From: Amoebophrya sp. A120
Lineage: Eukaryota; Protista; Dinoflagellata
Direction of reading: 5' to 3'
Assembly: GCA_905178155.1 (NCBI GenBank)
Contig: CAJINV010000068.1
Span: 6,011-13,340, forward strand
DNA length: 7,330 nt
Position numbers and translations under genes: made by a program. The notes beneath the pieces are model-generated. The model did not search any database. It was not told the origin of the DNA and worked only from the letters and a program-made list of their open reading frames with translations. Position 1 is the first letter of the stretch. Each line of letters begins with the position of its first letter. Shown piece by piece: positions 1 to 7,330 of this stretch.

Positions 1-787
1 TGTCTGGCTGTCCGCACCCGGGCCCGCGCCTTGTTTGTCCGAACCTGCATGGTCCGCGACTTCCCCTCCTTTGCCCTCATCTTGCGAGGGAGCGCTCGGC
101 ACTTCAGCGCCTCCTTCTTGCTGTTTTGCTTCCTGCCCTTGCGACAACCCTAGGCACTCATCCAGGTACAAAGTGCGTTTCGTGCGGTTCATCTTCGGCC
201 AATCGCGGACAGGAGGGAATTTATACGTGTCCGCGCCGAACTCATAGACAGGCCACGTGGTGTAGCAGTTGTCACGTTGCGCGACGTTGACTATTTGCAG
301 TGGAACTGTATGCACCGGGAGTGATGCACCAACTGGCATGAAGTCCTTTTGGTGGCTCGGAAGTACTTCTTTGCGAACTTCGTATCCCAGGGCCTGCGCT
401 CCTTCTAGTGCTTCTGCCAGGCTTAGCACTATGCCGCGACCCTGCCTGAGTGGACCGCGGGCATTCGCCTGCAGCCTCTTGAAGTCAGAGAGCTCCACAC
501 CTACTTTCCGAACCCCATGGCTGTGCTGCGTGACAAGTTGCAGCAACGTGAGCGCGTTGTTGACATAAGCCAGAAATCTCCGCTCTTGTCGGCGAACTTC
601 TACCCTCAGACGTTCCATCTTCGTTTTGCACTGCGCGAACACATTCCCTGTGTTTCTCTCAACGCAGACTGTCGCTGACAAATCCGAGGACGCCCGGACC
701 TCATATACGGGCAGCCCCGGTGGCATCCTGCCTCGCCCCAAAGTGCGATCCTTGACAAAGCCCGCAACTCTAAGTGCACCCCTTTGC
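1..787 (-). CDS. Exon running off the window edge (QRGALRVAGFVKDR...KMERLRVEVRRQERRFLAYVNNALTLLQ...GPGADSQT)
   Basis: Minus frame is stop-free from 855 to base 1. It is absent from the ORF track because it has no stop in the window. The exon's 5' boundary (~782-790) is uncertain. Confidence 0.75.
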
Positions 788-3700
788 CTACCTAGCATGA
801 CAGACATGCTTTGAGTGCCCGGAAAATTTCTCATGCGCCGACTAGAAATGGCACTTCAACTGGAGTTGTTTTTTGCATTACAAATCATTTCCACTTTGAG
901 GATTTCCAACCTGAGGCTGTCATACTCGGTCTTCGCGTTTTTCATCCCGGACATATCGAAAGGAAAAACTCCCCCTCCCCATATCGAACAAAAGGCATGT
1001 TTCCGAAAATTTGCGTTGCTGATTTGACGTCACAAATCATATCTGTCTTGCAAGAAGACAAGGGCAAAAGCTTCGCCCCCATCATGGAAGCGATTTGCCA
1101 TGCTGTTGGGCCTAAAGGGCAGCCGTTTGCCATGCTGAACAATTAAACCGATACGCCCCTACATAGCCTGGGGATCTGGCCGCAGCGCATTCCTGCAATA
1201 CGAAGCTGATTTGTGTACACAAATCCAGCATGAGAAATTTCGTTTCGATATGGGGAGGGGGGATTTTTCCTCTCGATAGGACACGTCGCCGACGCTGAAC
1301 ATGATGCTGCCTTCTTCTGCACTGTTTTATGCATTGCAAAAGCATCGCACTAGTATAAATTGCAATACAAACTTCCTTAGCATGAGAAATGGAATTTGTC
1401 ATGCGGATTTGCCTTGATGAAAACATTTGTAATGCAAGACTTGCATTTATACGAGTACGATACTTTTGCACAGGATATGTTTAGGAGTGACGCGATTTCG
1501 CCTTTGATTGCTTCTGCATCCTCCGCGCGGGGTTTGCCCTTGGGACGCGACACCCCTCGTGTCCTGAGTAAAAACGTACCCACACCAGAGTCAAGATGGG
1601 GACTTTGCAACACAAGCCTAGACCTTTTGGAGGTCACGCATCACAAGTTGCAGCCCGTAGCGTAGTGCAGGTTCGCAAGGCCAGCTGCATCAGAAATCCA
1701 TCTGCTCATCCTGTTTACAGCAGTACAAATTACAAAACACGACTAAAAATGCCTCTCCTGGCGATGCGCATTACAAATGTTCCTGTCATTGCAAATCTGC
1801 ATGACAACTCTGGTGTGGGTACGTTTTTACTCAGGATACCTCGCAAGTCATACACCCTCCTTTCCGCTTCAGCGACGATCTTCGCGTAGACTTTCCCCTC
1901 TACTTTTCCCCGCTCGATCGCTTCTTTAACTAGCTTTTGCACCACCGCGACCTTTGTCTCCTTCAAACGCTGCGCGAATGCTTCTGGGGATACCAAAGTG
2001 AAAAATCCCCCCACCCCATACTCAAACTAGAGCTTCGCGATGCAGATTTGTGGTCACAAATCAGCTTTGTCATGCTAGAAGGGAAAAGATGCGGACTGTA
2101 GTGCTGGTTGGCGTGGGAAAGCCTTGCATCTTCAGCATGACAGGGGGCAGCTGGAAGTGGGAAGCAGCATGACAAATTGCCTGCAACCAAGGCCACAGGT
2201 GCGTCTCGTCTTGGCCTTCTAGCATTACAAGTCGATTTGTGTACTCAACAAATACAGCATCACAAATTTCGTTTTCGATATGGGGAGGGGGGATTTCTCC
2301 TTTTGATAGGGGAGAGGGGCTCCTCTTGCTGTAGTTTCGCGCCGGTTTCATCATGCTCCCCTTCAGCAGGTTCTTTTTCGCTCCTCTTCGTGTACGGTTC
2401 CATTTGCAGGCTGTCCGCGAAGAAAGGGATGCCGTCGATCTCAAATTGATCCATAATGGCTTTGTCTTCCGCTTCCGCGTCCGTGAGGGCAGGATTTCTT
2501 TTTTGCAGAGCATCCGCCGCAGACATAATTTTGTCAATCTTCTTCTCAAGATCTTCTTCATCTTCATCATCGCCTCCACCCTCTGCTAACGAGGACAGAG
2601 CTTCATACCGGTTGCGTATCTCCGTGGTCGGATCGAGGGACAAGCTCCGGCGTTTGTTCGCGGGCCTGCTGGTGCTTCGTCCCCGCCGTTTCGCGTGCCC
2701 CTGTCCACCCCGGGAGGTAGTTCTACTCCTTCTTGGCGCGCCGCCGCGGCCCTCATCCACCCGAGGGGACGAGGTAGCTCTACTCCTTCTTGTTCTTGGC
2801 GCATCTCCGCTGTGTGATCGTGCCCGATCGGGAGCTGCAGCAGGTTCCACAGCACCAGGACGGAGTCGCGACAGCCGCTCCGCAGCCTCCTGGCTCGGAC
2901 TTCTCTGCATCACAGAAAAGCCTGCGTGTTGTTCTCTCTTGACTTGCCTCACTTCTCCAGTAGCTTGCGCTTTCAACTTTTCCAGCGCTTTCCTTCTTTC
3001 ATCTATGGAGGCGCCGGGATCGAAATCGACAAAGTTGAAGTTGCAAGAATAAACAAATAATGGCTTAGGCTTTCCATGCATAAAATTGATGCTGATGAAG
3101 ACTTGGAAGCTGCCCAGTTTCGTTTGCATTTGCTCGTGCAAGCGGCGCATGACAAATTGAAATTTCGGCATCATCGAAATCCAGTTTGTGTGCTGTAAGG
3201 ATGACAAGACATGATCATGATCTTGTTTTGCCTTGCTACAACTTTTTTAGCAGCTCCATCTCTAACCCAAACAGGCTTACAGTCGGCCTCGCTTGTTGTT
3301 GCTGACACCCCTGCAAGACAGGCACCTTGCGCAGGAGCACCATTGCGTTTGATGATCTTATGCAGTCCATTCTTTTCCAACTTGACCTTTGTCGATTTCG
3401 GTTCTGACGCTTCCATACCCTCTTGCAACCGTGTACTGGTGGTCGGATTTGCCCTTCGCAGCAAGCTGTCCTCCGGGCCACCGGCCCCGTCCGTTTGTAA
3501 GTCAATAACTATGCGGCCAGTAGTTTTAGACATCAATGGATGGTCCTTTTCAGTGGCAGAGCTGCTCTCGAACCACGCAGGCACAGCAGTTTCCAGGGTC
3601 AGCGTTTGGGGCGAAATCCAATACTTCACGTCGCGGGCCATGCAGATCTGCTGCTTGATACGGTTGCGACGGCTTATTTGCAGCGCTGCAGCAGCTGCGC

Positions 3701-6700
3701 GTTGTGGTGCAACAACTTCCGATGTTCTACTTGTTGGTCGAGGTTGTGGCGGGGGAGCCGGCACGCTTGGACAACATTCGCCACAACCAGCCGCTCCACA
3801 AGAATGATCTTCCTTTTTCTGTCCGTACGCAGCGGCAAGCGATCCCAAACGACCAGCTCCGCCTCCAGCCGTGGCAGCTGCGCCGGGATGAAGTAGAGCC
3901 TTTTGCTTTGTCATCTCGAAGAAATCGCCATCCTTCGTAGCGCAAGAGTCCACGCTAGTACTACCTTGTGCGAAGTCATGCACTCCATAGAGCGGGCTCG
4001 CGATCTTGATCTTGTACCCTCCTAGTACGACGTCGGAGGAGGTACTACCGCCTGTAGTAACACGACGACCGGTATGGATTGTAAAAGTGTCTGGGTCTGG
4101 AAGTAGAATGCAACTTGTCATGCTAAATCTGAATCATGTAAAAAATCTGTGTTGCATGATTACCAAGAGCTGTCCACTTTTGACCTAGTCGAGAGGCAGT
4201 TTCTCATGCAGGATAGGCATGATAGAACTCTCCGAGAATCTGTCATGCTCTGTCCTACATACCAGACCTCAGGGGTCATGTACGATCTGCATGACAAGTC
4301 TGGCATTCTTCCAGAGGAGGACCCAGACATTTTTACACTTGATAACCCGTAGCTCCCCACCCAGCATGTTTTGCCGCCCAATTCGACGCCACGAAACGCA
4401 TCTGTATCAAACAAAAAAGCGCTAACCACGTTAACGGCCTTCTTACATTGCAAATATGCATGACAAATTTTTCCGAGCATGCATGCTCTGCATGACAAAT
4501 TCGGCCACGTTTTGTGACGCATTTCTGCATCACAAATTCCGTTAACGTTAGCACTTTTTTCTGTGATAATCTGGCACAGCACGCAAGGGTTCTTGCTGAC
4601 ATAGATTTTATTCTCGAAAAAAGAAGAAGTTGTTGCACTACTGACCACTGGTGGAAGTTGTTGTTGTGCTTCTTTATGAGCTGGTACAGCTTGTTTTTGG
4701 TGTAGTAGCTTCCACTCCATGAGATGAAGCAAATTCGTTTCCGCGTGTCGGCCTCTGAGAGTTTTGTCCGTCATACCCCCATATCAAATGTAAAAATGTC
4801 TGAGTCTGGAAGATTGCCAGGTTTGTCATGCACATTTTGCATGACTCCTGATGTCTGTGATGCATGCCCTAGCGTCACAGATTTTGTGAGGGCTTCCTGA
4901 TGCCTATACCGCATGACAAATGCTCTTTCCGAGTAGCAAAACTTGGACTCTCTTTGCTGCTCATGCAATACAGAATTTTTTGGAATCCAAAATCAGCATG
5001 ACAAGTTGGATTCTTCCAGACCCAGACATTTTTACATTTGATACCCCACGCTCCTGCTTGTCCACGTCCACGCGGACGAATTGAAGAGAAGCGACCTGTA
5101 TCAAATGCAAATGTGTCTGGGTCTGGAAATTTGTGATGCTGGGTGGCGTATCATGAGGAGGCCACAAGTGCTGGCGCAGCTAGCAGGACAAGTTTCTGAG
5201 CTTCTGGGTGTTCTTGCCTATTCTGCATGGCAAGCTGCGTTTCTGCGTGACAGAAGAGGAGGCTCTTGGGTAACGTGCATGACAGATGTAAGAGCCATAC
5301 CAGACAAGCATGACAAGCATCAACATGCATTCTTCCAGACCCAGAACTAAAAATATGCATTTCATAACCTTCTCCTGGATGAATCTCGCCACGAGGCTCT
5401 TTTTTGCCTTCCTGTCCTCGTCGTCCTCGGTTTCGGCTAAGAAAGCCTTCAACCCGTCCGACAAGGGTTCGACATCGAAGATTTCAGATATGACGGCGCA
5501 CTAGAAGTACCACCCTGCTCCCCCTCATTTTTTCTTTTCCACGCATGAAGAACAACAGCGAATTAATATACAAGAACAAAAGCACAAGCTGCACACGCGC
5601 AGCCTGTAACTGACAAGTTCTTCACGCGCCTCGCACAGAGGGACTGTAGTCCTAGTAGCCTTTTTGGGCTTCCGGAATAAAATCTGTCACGCAAACAATG
5701 AATAAGTACTACAAGGCAGCGCGACCGCGACCAGTGGATTTGGGAACTTGCACCATGACGAAGTCGAAGGTATGAGGGGGAGCAGGGGGACGAGTTGTGC
5801 ACTGTCATATGATAAGAGCTTAAAACCGGAAGAAGAAACGGATCAGCATCTCCACCATGATCTACTTATGCATTGCAAATATTATGTCTGCCTCCCTCTG
5901 GAAAATCTAAATTGTGGCTGTGCTGCTAAATTGATACTTAGGTACTTATGGATGACGATGAGTCTGGTGCTTTCCTTTCAACAGGTGCAGCTAAGCATGA
6001 CAAGTTCATTTGACGCCGTCTGATGCGTTGGGTATGCAACACAAGTTTTCAGAAAAGTAAACTAGACACGACATGCAAGACAAAGAACTACTCCACTTTT
6101 ATTGCAGACGACCCAGTAGTAGACGCATAAATGTATTTGCATTCGATACAGGAGCTTGACCAACAGTAGAAATAACACCTCCAACTCCGCGGCCTTGATT
6201 TGATGTATTTATTCCACGAGGACCTCTACCAGGAACAGTATCAAGAACAAAGCTTGCCTCCAAAACCGCTTTTAAACAAGCGCTGACCGCTTTTTTCGCT
6301 GTGTTCACGAACCGCTCATGTTCGTAACGATCGATCGGAACGCTTTCGAATGCTCCTGTCCGCTTTGTCGTCGCGTCGAAATCCCGCGCGTAGAAGGCGG
6401 TCTCCCGTAGCTGTTTAGTACGCCCCAGTTCTTCAAAGAAAACATCGCTCTCCTTGAAGGGTACCCGCGCTACACTCCCGGGAAGAAATACAGTCCGCAC
6501 CGGGGATGACGTGGCCATCGAGGACTTCTCTTTCTTGTAAGTACGGAACTTGGCTCTCAACAAGTCCCGACGGTCCTGCCAGGAGGGAGGGCGGGGGGGC
6601 GCGCCTGCTGAGCCTATGGACTGCAAATATTTATGTTGTCCGGGTCTGGGGTATTGTGATGTGGATTTTTGGACATTGTTTATGCGAACGCGTGGTCCTG

Positions 6701-7107
6701 AATTGGCGGCCAAGCATGTTGACCAAAAGTTTCATTTCAGTTGCTACGTGTTGCCTCTTCTGCATGGTATAATGCAAGCATCCATTCTGCATCTTCCATG
6801 ACAAAAAAAACAAAAAGGGCTTGATCGATGGGATGGAAATGGAATAATAATAAAAAGGTAAAAATACAAATAATAAACGAATGCATGTTGACAGACTTGA
6901 GAGTCATGCTCCAGCTGCTGGCACCAGAGAATTACGACTGACTACAAGCGTCCTTCTTGCACTCTTCCAAATGACCAATACATCATATTTGCAATGCGTA
7001 GAGCCGCCGGCGGTGCCTCCTCCTCGGTCCACACGCTTCTGTATCAGTAAGTTCGAGTTGAACGCGATAAGCAGTCGGCTGTTGTTGACATGATGTGGAG
7101 GGTTCAG
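1..7107 (-). CDS. Large multi-exon gene, partial at both ends (~1161 aa reconstructed from 14 exons), with a putative Zn-dependent cytidine/adenosine-deaminase-superfamily domain
   Basis: Model exons: 7107-7001, 6609-6149, 5861-5810, 5483-5367, 5093-5044, 4776-4569, 4399-4345, 4067-3418, 2998-2309, 1985-1839, 1554-1478, 1322-1279, 948-911, 787-1. They total 3483 nt with no stop. Removed lengths 391, 287, 326, 273, 267, 169, 277, 419, 323, 284, 155 and 330 nt each convert the upstream open frame into the downstream one. Junctions can slide within the 5-bp DRs, and the last intron is uncertain. Confidence 0.85.
789..931. mobile_element. Degenerate introner-like TIR element / intron
   Basis: Left arm TACCTAGCATGACAG (789) vs reverse complement of right arm GACCGAGTATGACAG (931). 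Motif variants at 795, 828 and 875. The DR is decayed (TTGCC/TTCGC). It contains the in-frame TGA at 858-856 that must be removed. Confidence 0.5.
911..948 (-). CDS. Micro-exon GMKNA(KTEYDSL)
   Basis: In frame after removal of element 954-1278. The 3' end is 911 if GT-AG intron 788-910 is used, or ~932 if the whole degenerate element is removed. Confidence 0.5.
954..1278. mobile_element. Introner/MITE family A, copy 1 (325 bp)
   Basis: ~35-bp TIR TATCGAAAGGAAAAACTCCCCCTCCCCATATCGAA vs TATCGAGAGGAAAAATCCCCCCTCCCCATATCGAA. Perfect DR GGACA at 949-953 and 1279-1283. Removing 330 nt gives FSVGDVS|GMKNA. Confidence 0.92.
1279..1322 (-). CDS. Exon SAEEGSIMFSVGDVS
   Basis: Open in the frame dictated by both flanking element excisions. 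Confidence 0.75.
1328..1477. mobile_element. Introner/MITE (150 bp)
   Basis: TIR TATGCATTGCAAAAGCATCGCACTAGTATAAA vs TATCCTGTGCAAAAGTATCGTACTCGTATAAA. Perfect DR TGTTT at 1323-1327 and 1478-1482. Removing 155 nt gives IASLLN|SAEEGS. Confidence 0.88.
1478..1554 (-). CDS. Exon VSRPKGKPRAEDAEAIKGEIASLLN
   Basis: Core of ORF 1377..1637. In frame with both neighbours after excision. Confidence 0.8.
1560..1838. mobile_element. Introner/MITE family B, copy 1 (279 bp)
   Basis: Perfect 30-bp inverted repeat 1562-1591 / 1807-1836 (TCCTGAGTAAAAACGTACCCACACCAGAGT). Perfect DR CCTCG at 1555-1559 and 1839-1843. The 284-nt removal can be read as GT-AG intron 1839->1556 and gives YDLRG|VSRPK. Confidence 0.95.
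1839..1985 (-). CDS. Exon EAFAQRLKETKVAVVQKLVKEAIERGKVEGKVYAKIVAEAERRVYDLRG
   Basis: Protein-like, helical-looking core of ORF 1730..2014. In frame with both neighbours. Confidence 0.85.
1991..2308. mobile_element. Introner/MITE family A, copy 2 (318 bp)
   Basis: TIR TACCAAAGTGAAAAATCCCCCCACCCCATA vs TATCAAAAGGAGAAATCCCCCCTCCCCATA. Perfect DR GGGGA at 1986-1990 and 2309-2313. The interior resembles 954-1278. Removing 323 nt gives EEPLSP|EAFAQ. Confidence 0.92.
2309..2998 (-). CDS. Exon: charged, low-complexity region (R/S-rich basic tract, then acidic GGGDDEDEED tract)
   Basis: Part of the 315-aa ORF 2260..3207 lying between two elements. Confidence 0.85.
2704..2810. repeat. Imperfect intra-exon tandem duplication (2 units, ~50 bp)
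   Basis: GAGGTAGTTCTACTCCTTCTTGGCGC (2714-2739) vs GAGGTAGCTCTACTCCTTCTTGTTCTTGGCGC (2771-2802), each preceded by TCCACCC. They encode APRRSRTTS / APRTRRSRATS. Confidence 0.75.
3004..3417. mobile_element. Introner/MITE (414 bp)
   Basis: ~40-47-bp TIR TATGGAGGCGCCGGGATCGAAATCGACAAAGTTGAAGTTG vs TATGGAAGCGTCAGAACCGAAATCGACAAAGGTCAAGTTG. Decayed DR TCATC/CCCTC. Removing 419 nt, or GT-AG intron 3418->3003 (416 nt), joins TRLQE to RRKALEK in frame. Confidence 0.85.
3418..4067 (-). CDS. Exon RRVTTGG...KIKIASPLYGVHDF...HSCGAAGCGECC...TTSTRLQE
   Basis: Core of the 316-aa ORF 3171..4121 between two elements. Confidence 0.85.
4073..4344. mobile_element. Introner/MITE family C, copy 1 (272 bp)
   Basis: TIR TATGGATTGTAAAAGTGTCTGGGTC vs TATCAAGTGTAAAAATGTCTGGGTC. 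DR ACCGG/ACCCG (4 of 5). Removing 277 nt gives GWGATG|RRVTT. Confidence 0.9.
4345..4399 (-). CDS. Exon RFVASNWAAKHAGWGATG
   Basis: In frame with both neighbours after excision. Confidence 0.78.
4405..4568. mobile_element. Introner/MITE (164 bp)
   Basis: TIR TATCAAACAAAAAAGCGCTAAC(CAC)GTTAACGG vs TATCACAGAAAAAAGTGCTAACGTTAACGG. Perfect DR ATCTG at 4400-4404 and 4569-4573. Removing 169 nt gives PCVLCQM|RFVAS. Confidence 0.92.
4569..4776 (-). CDS. Exon with deaminase zinc-binding motifs: GRHAETNLL...KIYVSKNPCVLC
   Basis: HAE at 4747-4739 and PCVLC at 4588-4574 with a 50-aa spacer. This is the HxE...PCxxC signature of the cytidine-deaminase-like superfamily. Confidence 0.8.
4782..5043. mobile_element. 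Introner/MITE family C, copy 2 (262 bp)
   Basis: 32-bp TIR TATCAAATGTAAAAATGTCTG(A/G)GTCTGGAAGA with one mismatch. Perfect DR CCCCA at 4777-4781 and 5044-5048. Removing 267 nt gives DKQERG|GMTDK. Confidence 0.95.
5044..5093 (-). CDS. Exon ASLQFVRVDVDKQERG
   Basis: In frame with both neighbours after excision. Confidence 0.8.
5099..5366. mobile_element. Introner/MITE family C, copy 3 (268 bp)
   Basis: TIR TATCAAATGCAAATGTG-TCTGGGTCTGGAA vs TATGAAATGCATATTTTTAGTTCTGGGTCTGGAA. DR ACCTG/ACCTT. The 273-nt removal reads as GT-AG intron 5368->5096 and gives IQEKV|ASLQF. Confidence 0.9.
5367..5483 (-). CDS. Exon IFDVEPLSDGLKAFLAETEDDEDRKAKKSLVARFIQEKV
   Basis: Frame of ORF 5180..5464 extended upstream to the element boundary. 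Confidence 0.82.
5489..5809. mobile_element. Introner/MITE (321 bp)
   Basis: TIR TATGACGGCGCAC...CCCTGCTCCCCCTCAT vs TATGACAGTGCAC...CCCTGCTCCCCCTCAT, with a perfect 16-bp inner stem 5513-5528 / 5772-5787. Decayed DR TCAGA/TGATA. Removing 326 nt is in frame, and so is GT-AG intron 5802->5501 (302 nt). Confidence 0.8.
5810..5861 (-). CDS. Exon DHGGDADPFLLPVLSSY
   Basis: Open in the frame required by both flanking excisions. Confidence 0.65.
5867..6148. mobile_element. Diverged introner/MITE, family-C-like (282 bp)
   Basis: TIR TATGCATTGCAAATA-TTATG vs TATCGAATGCAAATACATTTATG. GCATGACAA at 5995. The DR is essentially lost (CTACT/CAGGA). Removing 287 or 284 nt joins ORF 6099..6713 to the next exon in frame. 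Confidence 0.62.
6149..6609 (-). CDS. Exon AGAPPRPPSWQDRRDLLRAKF...ERFVNTAKKAVSACLKAVLE...VGQAP
   Basis: Core of the 204-aa ORF 6099..6713 between two elements. Confidence 0.85.
6615..7000. mobile_element. Introner/MITE, family-C-like (386 bp)
   Basis: TIR TATGGACTGCAAATAT vs TACGCATTGCAAATAT. Perfect DR GAGCC at 6610-6614 and 7001-7005. The 391-nt removal can be read as GC-AG intron 7004->6614 and gives GTAGGS|AGAPP. Confidence 0.88.
7001..7107 (-). CDS. Exon LNPPHHVNNSRLLIAFNSNLLIQKRVDRGGGTAGGS
   Basis: Core of ORF 6904..7131. In frame with the downstream exon after excision. Confidence 0.8.
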
Positions 7108-7330
7108 TATCCTGAGTAAAAACGTACCCACACCAGAGTCAAGATGGGAAATCTGCTAGACAAATCGGCAAGCTTTGGGAGTTGTGCATGACAAGTTTCC
7201 GTCTGTAGTATAGTGGTGCATAGCAAGGCAAGCCGCATGAGAAAGCCAATTTCTCATCCTGTTTACAGCATTACAAATGCCAAATCACGATTGGAAATAC
7301 CTCTCATGAGGATGCGCATTACAAATGTTC
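7108..7330. mobile_element. Introner/MITE family B, copy 2 (truncated by window edge)
   Basis: Collinear with 1560-1782 at offset 5548, and the first 41 nt match at 40 positions. The preceding 5-mer TTCAG (7103-7107) is the candidate DR. Confidence 0.92.

Follow-up and report, generated by a model that had tools for sequence, protein, structure and literature searches.

The window, that is, the whole 7,330-nt stretch of Amoebophrya sp. A120 DNA analysed here, holds part of one large gene on its minus strand, whose architecture is non-prokaryotic: coding stretches alternate with elements of 150-420 nt bearing inverted ends (Table 1). Excising 12 hairpin introner elements together with 5 nt each yields a single open frame of 892 amino acids down to position 925, and if 924-700 is also an intron, the inferred 13th, the spliced frame reaches 1,125 amino acids and is open at both window ends. 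The frame closes if the offset at any single intron is given another value within 3-7 nt instead of 5. As the 12 introns were picked from 41 candidate pairs by end quality, repeats and frame jointly, this frame result is partly non-independent. The underlying scan took segments that begin with TA and whose terminal 20 bases are complementary at 13 positions or more. Of its 41 pairs, 12 reached 15/20 or better at the ends and 11 were flanked by a 5-nt repeat that matched in 4/5 or 5/5 positions; five shuffles gave 16-26 pairs, none of them with ends of 15/20 or better and 0-2 with such a repeat. GC content is 45% in the introns and 55% in the exons.

Two fragments of the gene are present in NCBI as partial A120 proteins, CAD7975475.1 and CAD7975473.1 (hereafter P0001 and P0002), which match residues 165-303 and 298-403 of the spliced frame letter for letter and together cross six of the 12 intron junctions in agreement with it. 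The annotation of A120 drew its gene models from transcript alignments (PMC7789003, section 25), so these six junctions are probably transcript-derived; the splicing presented here combines the frame rule with the NCBI gene models. The junction between exons 1 and 2 is covered by no database protein in a protein search with the exon that contains the LLIAFN stretch, and it has a perfect 5-nt repeat and possible GC-AG ends. P0001 holds the HAE triplet and stops before PCxxC while P0002 starts after HAE, and because the annotation splits the gene between these two motifs, the combined HAE...PCxxC signature is unannotated.

A reading made earlier from the sequence alone had described a very large protein with R/S-rich and acidic tails. 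The size and the R/S-rich, acidic character of one exon bear this out (2998-2309; R+S 0.22, D+E 0.18), although that stretch lies within the frame, not at a tail, and the frame runs on past both window ends, with the N-terminus and further upstream exons outside the window. It had also placed an exon at 7001-7107, which is indeed an exon but runs from about 7102 to 7001 by the element-plus-5 rule. Two further regions of the gene may be recorded here. Within exon 8, one His and four Cys fall within about 12 residues (window 3830-3750) and could form a second metal site, with no family match; the last exon has a globular-looking part (window 699-130) for which Pfam, NCBIfam and PHROG gave no match and no relative of similar length was found.

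Table 1. Exons, introner introns and signature motifs of the gene, listed in the direction of transcription.
Feature	Position	Strand	Basis or remark
Introner element, 3' part	7103..7330	-	family of 1838-1560; 78% over 224 nt; 33-nt arm 100% complementary to 1807-1839
Exon 1 in window	7001..7102	-	element+5 frame rule, perfect 5-nt repeat; LLIAFN at 7074-7057
Introner intron	6610..7000	-	perfect 5-nt repeat, GC-AG possible
Exon 2, 153 aa, no family	6149..6609	-	frame rule; last 23 codons in P0001
Introner intron, non-canonical	5862..6148	-	repeat decayed (1/5); junction in P0001
Exon 3	5810..5861	-	frame rule; both junctions in P0001
Introner intron, non-canonical	5484..5809	-	junction in P0001
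Exon 4, charged helical-looking stretch	5367..5483	-	frame rule; both junctions in P0001
Introner intron, GT-AG possible	5094..5366	-	junction in P0001
Exon 5, hydrophobic strand-like stretch about 25 residues before His	5044..5093	-	frame rule; both junctions in P0001
Introner intron, non-canonical (GT-GG at best)	4777..5043	-	inverted ends 20/20; junction in P0001
Exon 6, entire HAE...PCxxC signature and Q/A/S-rich insert	4569..4776	-	frame rule, Pfam; covered by P0001 and P0002
HAE, predicted zinc ligand His271 and predicted catalytic Glu273 (892-aa frame numbering)	4739..4747	-	sequence; helix in low-confidence model
Strand-3-like stretch and PCxxC, Cys325 and Cys328 predicted zinc ligands	4574..4609	-	sequence; profile score
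Introner intron directly after CxxC, non-canonical (AT-AG at best)	4400..4568	-	long hairpin fold, z -6.75; junction in P0002
Exon 7, helix that follows CxxC; candidate strand 4	4345..4399	-	frame rule; both junctions in P0002
Introner intron, non-canonical (GT-CG at best)	4068..4344	-	family of 5043-4782, reverse orientation; junction in P0002
Exon 8, 3950-3912 resembling TadA C-terminal helix (suggestive only), then low-complexity linker	3418..4067	-	
Introner intron, non-canonical	2999..3417	-	inverted ends, frame rule
Exon 9, R/S-rich then acidic region, short basic runs	2309..2998	-	frame rule, composition
Introner intron, non-canonical	1986..2308	-	perfect repeat
Exon 10	1839..1985	-	frame rule, perfect repeats both sides
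Introner intron, GT-AG possible	1555..1838	-	perfect repeat
Exon 11	1478..1554	-	frame rule
Introner intron, AT-AC possible	1323..1477	-	perfect repeat
Exon 12	1279..1322	-	frame rule
Introner intron, non-canonical	949..1278	-	perfect repeat
Exon 13, right end inferred	925..948	-	
Inferred 13th intron	700..924	-	imperfect ends, boundaries uncertain
Exon 14 (inferred), open to window end, no family	1..699	-	

The introns are known biology, already described for A120 introner elements, which have terminal inverted repeats starting with TAT and direct repeats of 3-5 nt at their boundaries (Farhat et al. 2021, PMC7789003). Those found here agree with the described elements in length (155-419 nt), in folding as hairpins, in their TAT inverted ends (11 of 12 begin with TAT) and direct repeats of 5 nt, and in having splice sites that are for the most part non-canonical; they show no difference of kind. 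The direct repeats are perfect at seven of the 12 introns, 4/5 at two, 3/5 at two and 1/5 at one. Nine of the 12 introns have neither GT-AG nor GC-AG at any shift within the repeat, and the same is true of five of the six junctions found in the NCBI models, so that both features of the A120 elements are present, the boundary repeats with TAT ends and the removal despite non-canonical ends. The rule of the element plus exactly 5 nt holds at 12 of 12 introns, even at 6148-5862 with its repeat decayed to 1/5, and suggests that splicing takes its position from the hairpin and not from the repeat or the end dinucleotides.

Some further properties of the elements are worth noting. The copies at 5043-4782 and 4344-4073 belong to one element family in reverse orientations (alignment score 135 opposite, 39 same), and since both are removed in the NCBI models, excision is independent of element orientation; two more families have two same-orientation copies each (7330-7108 with 1838-1560, and 2308-1991 with 1278-954). 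The 7-mer TGTCATG, counted on either strand, occurs 20 times in introns and never in exons (binomial p 9e-6, for a motif chosen after being seen) and is shared by 12 of 14 elements, which belong to different end-repeat families. It could be a common transposase-binding or splicing signal, and the supplement text of PMC7789003 does not contain it.

HAE (4747-4739), PCVLC (4588-4574) and LLIAFN (7074-7057), all on the minus strand, are where the sequence-only reading had put them, and the helix after CxxC comes into frame only once 4568-4400 is removed, as that reading had held and as the junction in P0002 bears out. Its picture of a domain spread over several exons applies to the flanks, which do lie in other exons, and not to the four catalytic residues, His271, Glu273, Cys325 and Cys328, all of which are inside exon 6 (4776-4569). 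Two features of the deaminase superfamily are present, [HC]xE at the start of helix 2, here HAE, with a helix at residues 7-30 of the exon model (H7-30, local pLDDT ~70), and a strand 3 followed by PCxxC at 4609-4574. The spacing from His to the first Cys is 54 residues, compared with about 30 in TadA-like prokaryote proteins. LLIAFN lies 261 residues before the His and is a candidate for strand 2 of the domain, exon 5093-5044 being the other candidate for a pre-His strand; an alignment of the N-terminal half (strands 1-2) with TadA was equalled in 837 of 3000 shuffles and is not significant.

Shuffling the 892-aa frame 20,000 times produced HxE-x15-70-PCxxC in 10 cases, which makes a chance origin unlikely; at this rate of 5e-4 per protein of such size, a genome-wide scan would meet several by chance; a stricter pattern, defined after the motif was seen, arose in none of 20,000. 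A profile was also made from 56 prokaryote deaminases that had been collected by family search and not by this motif, leaving out L197 (genome G006). Residues 315-330 score 7.5 bits on it, against at most 3.7 bits in 1000 shuffles, in a match that stops short of HAE.

For exon 6, the top two of 24,736 Pfam families are both deaminases and both below cut-off, OTT_1508_deam (PF14441) at 18.1 bits (E 0.0026, cut-off 27 bits) and APOBEC_N (PF08210) at E 0.026. Across separate scans PF14441 gave 18.1, 16.5 and 14.3 bits, all below 27. Ten other segments of the gene had a best Pfam E of 0.019, the TadA and dCMP models PF14437 and PF00383 gave no match in Pfam scans of the gene segments, and nothing scored over the cut-off of a curated family for the exon and segments scanned in Pfam and other family libraries. 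Taken with the NCBI fragments and the shuffles, the Pfam ranking supports the claim that a zinc-deaminase signature sits in a gene missed by standard annotation.

There is also a weak likeness to TadA. P0002 matches it in two libraries (PDB 3ocq, E 0.96; PRK10860, E 0.094) and aligns collinearly with E. coli TadA at 23% over 91 columns; in this pairwise alignment an Arg and a Phe-Phe fall at the TadA positions after strand 4 and in the C-terminal helix, with Ser for Glu, a correspondence that is not significant on unbiased sets. After CxxC, the likeness is significant only with E. coli TadA, itself picked once the PDB match had been seen: 5 of 5000 shuffles reached it. With 35 unbiased TadA-like proteins it is not significant (65 of 400 shuffles, and 166 of 3000 in a profile version); a motif-selected set gave 14 of 400, and two other profile versions gave 99 and 88 of 3000.

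No relative emerged. The motif exon had four matches among 1.84 billion representative proteins, namely P0001 and P0002 themselves and a pair of repetitive proteins that lack the motif (P0003 and P0004); this pair was rejected as relatives. Word-based protein searches with the motif exon, the LLIAFN exon and part of the last exon found none, nor did scans of metagenome and genome contigs, and tblastn gave nothing in plasmids; a phage tblastn match at E 4 was rejected as antisense to annotated genes. Against PDB sequences, neither a profile from HAE to PCxxC, at E up to 10, nor the exon alone found a deaminase, and Chromo-shadow matches (E 0.07-0.9) were set aside as weak and as falling on the helix that follows HAE. 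Single-sequence AlphaFold2 models of fragments, made without alignments, were poor (pLDDT 58 and pTM 0.23 for the exon; pLDDT 34 and pTM 0.22), and Foldseek returned 0 matches on the unusable exon model. The literature covered on OTT_1508 deaminases and on Amoebophrya deaminases, which took in few subscription journals, has no account of this gene, and the word 'deaminase' has 0 occurrences in the A120 supplement text (PMC7789003).

The sequence-only reading had likened the protein to OTT_1508-like deaminases by the 'VSK' before CxxC and a long insert before HAE; it overcalled the subfamily, and the argument from VSK fails as a diagnostic. The 18.1 bits found on PF14441 fall inside the 16.9-23.0 bits of three TadA-type controls (E. 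coli TadA gives no match there). In a survey of the motif, back-translated IYV[ST]KxPCxxC had at least 120 matches in genome contigs and YVSKNPCxxC had 24 loci in metagenome contigs. Among the matches listed, 140 held on translation, 108 lay in ORFs of at least 100 aa, and 106 of these 108 had an upstream HxE and were by eye of TadA or dCMP-deaminase type, 105 with YVTK and one (L090) with YVSK. L090, with IYVSKxPC, is TadA by Pfam at 139 bits; none of the 24 metagenome loci with exact YVSKNPCxxC is in an ORF of at least 100 aa. As YV[ST]KxPC is a TadA/dCMP-type motif in prokaryote genomes, VSK is not diagnostic of OTT_1508. The protein is not an ordinary TadA either, since TadA-type controls score 48-139 bits on their own families (PF14437, PF00383) and this protein has no match there. 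An OTT_1508-like subfamily is nevertheless possible, PF14441 being the best Pfam match and the TadA and dCMP models giving none. Three samples of 401 genomes held 0 members of PF14441 over cut-off; the best matches, L210 and L211, were rejected as OTT_1508 members because they are ordinary TadA/dCMP-type proteins. These two (1237-1845 on the plus strand and 1354-2028 on the minus strand) are divergent proteobacterial deaminases with modest scores on many deaminase families at once.

In the deaminase superfamily, a His and two Cys bind zinc and a Glu activates water for hydrolytic deamination. We consider it probable that exon 6 and its flanks encode a real, zinc-dependent domain of this kind, a highly divergent orphan. 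Unlikely, but to be taken seriously, is the alternative of a large, fast-evolving and mostly disordered protein that has no deaminase activity, in which the signature arose by chance or marks a zinc site that is dead or serves structure only. In favour of this are scores that all lie below cut-off, the want of a relative and of fold support, the several cases per genome that the loose motif yields by chance, and the 20-21 bits that random genome stretches reach on PF14441 (L147 and L214, for example). The alternative accords poorly, however, with four intact residues in canonical order, with a hydrophobic strand leading up to the canonical Pro, with a score on the 56-deaminase profile above all 1000 shuffles, and with weak matches that come from different libraries (Pfam, PDB, PRK) and include different deaminase families.

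What such an enzyme would act on can be proposed only tentatively, and an RNA adenosine deaminase working inside the parasite is the possibility that we favour. From what is known of the family, His271, Cys325 and Cys328 would hold the zinc ion that activates water, and Glu273 would shuttle a proton as the amino group of the base is replaced. The substrate, judged by the nearest groups, may be adenosine in RNA hairpin loops, converted to inosine, since TadA/Tad2 and the fungal OTT_1508-like OLD enzymes are both A-to-I editors, TadA/Tad2 at adenosine-34 of tRNA and the OLD enzymes in mRNA hairpin loops (PMC12754623); the prediction by Iyer et al. of a cytosine substrate for the OTT_1508/APOBEC group (PMC3239186) counts against an adenosine. 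Speaking for an RNA editor in the parasite are the 21,242 candidate edited positions of A120, which are tabulated without edit types (PMC7789003, Table S5). It is tempting to guess that the long R/S-rich, basic and acidic regions might bring the enzyme to nuclear RNA-protein complexes. A cytidine deaminase on single-stranded DNA or RNA, which might attack viruses or the introners of the parasite itself or be sent into the algal host, seems improbable to us. In its favour, APOBEC_N is the second Pfam match, Iyer et al. place OTT_1508 with AID/APOBEC, predict cytosine targets and describe versions deployed by endoparasitic bacteria (PMC3239186), and Amoebophrya is an intracellular parasite of dinoflagellates, but the strand-3 W and the SxS before PCxxC of AID/APOBEC are absent, TadA controls also match APOBEC_N at 16-23 bits, the characterised OTT_1508-like enzymes edit adenosine (PMC12754623), and, with R/S-rich regions in a length of over 1100 aa, the protein would look more like a resident nuclear one.

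We give still less credence to the idea of an ordinary ADAT2/Tad2, the deaminase of the tRNA wobble position, that inserts and rapid evolution have enlarged in this parasite. The TadA-type strand-3 motif and the weak collinear alignment through to the C-terminal helix would suit it, whereas PF14437 and PF00383, on which TadA-type controls score so well, do not match, EPCxMC reads NPCVLC, the N-terminal half does not align, and a conserved housekeeping enzyme should have relatives among the proteins searched. A bolder idea, to which we assign only a very slim chance, would make the protein an mRNA editor of OTT_1508/OLD type, the first known from dinoflagellates and their relatives and the founder of its own branch, editing adenosines in the hairpins of introner introns, helping the genome to tolerate tens of thousands of non-canonical introns, and being the source of part of those 21,242 candidate sites. 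Such editing would turn an AT donor into IT, read as GT, and would rescue the intron at 4568-4400; it is counted against by the candidate edits at the ends of just 3-4% of A120 introns (PMC7789003).

The RNA-editing machinery of dinoflagellates was called unknown by Liew et al. (PMC5357065), and a 2026 review leaves the DYW candidates for it open (PMC12787238). An orphan putative deaminase in a basal lineage would be a concrete candidate for this role and a possible new scaffold for base editing. The split in the annotation means that the public A120 proteome loses domains, and that the full motif escapes any profile search of the annotated A120 proteins. Should the motif have arisen by chance, this lesson in annotation alone remains.

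It is instructive to set the protein beside the known deaminase groups. It differs from Tad1/ADAR, in which an Asp, here Gly, stands two residues before HxE, and lacks the large CxxC insert of that group. Where AID/APOBEC has its W in strand 3 and SxS before PCxxC (PMC3239186, Table 1), the sequence here reads KIYV and then SKN. The HxEK of DYW proteins is HAET here, and no PPR repeats are present in the segments scanned. Of the Bd3614-like features, HAExN is present and the Met within CxxC is absent, with no match to PF14439. With TadA/Tad2 (ADAT2; PF14437, PRK10860) the protein shares HAE, the IYVSKxPC seen in the true TadA L090 and a weak collinear match to the C-terminal helix, but there is no E before PC and no M within CxxC, about 24 extra residues lie between His and Cys, and the protein is at least five times longer, besides the missing family match and the N-terminal half that is not alignable. 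The OTT_1508 clade, in an account whose main text does not mention dinoflagellates, is defined by GxxK before CxxC and by a polar residue, usually His, with an aromatic-x-x-Pro loop after strand 4 (PMC3239186, Table 1). Here GxxK is YVSK, with Tyr in place of Gly, exon 4399-4345 has a His and a Trp but no Pro after the Trp, the PF14441 score is below cut-off and within the range of the TadA controls, and no transglycosylase domain is found in the Pfam-scanned segments of the window; what it has in common with the clade is the HxE...CxxC centre, the Lys kept three residues before the first Cys, the His after helix 3, the best Pfam match and, possibly, a long insert before HAE.
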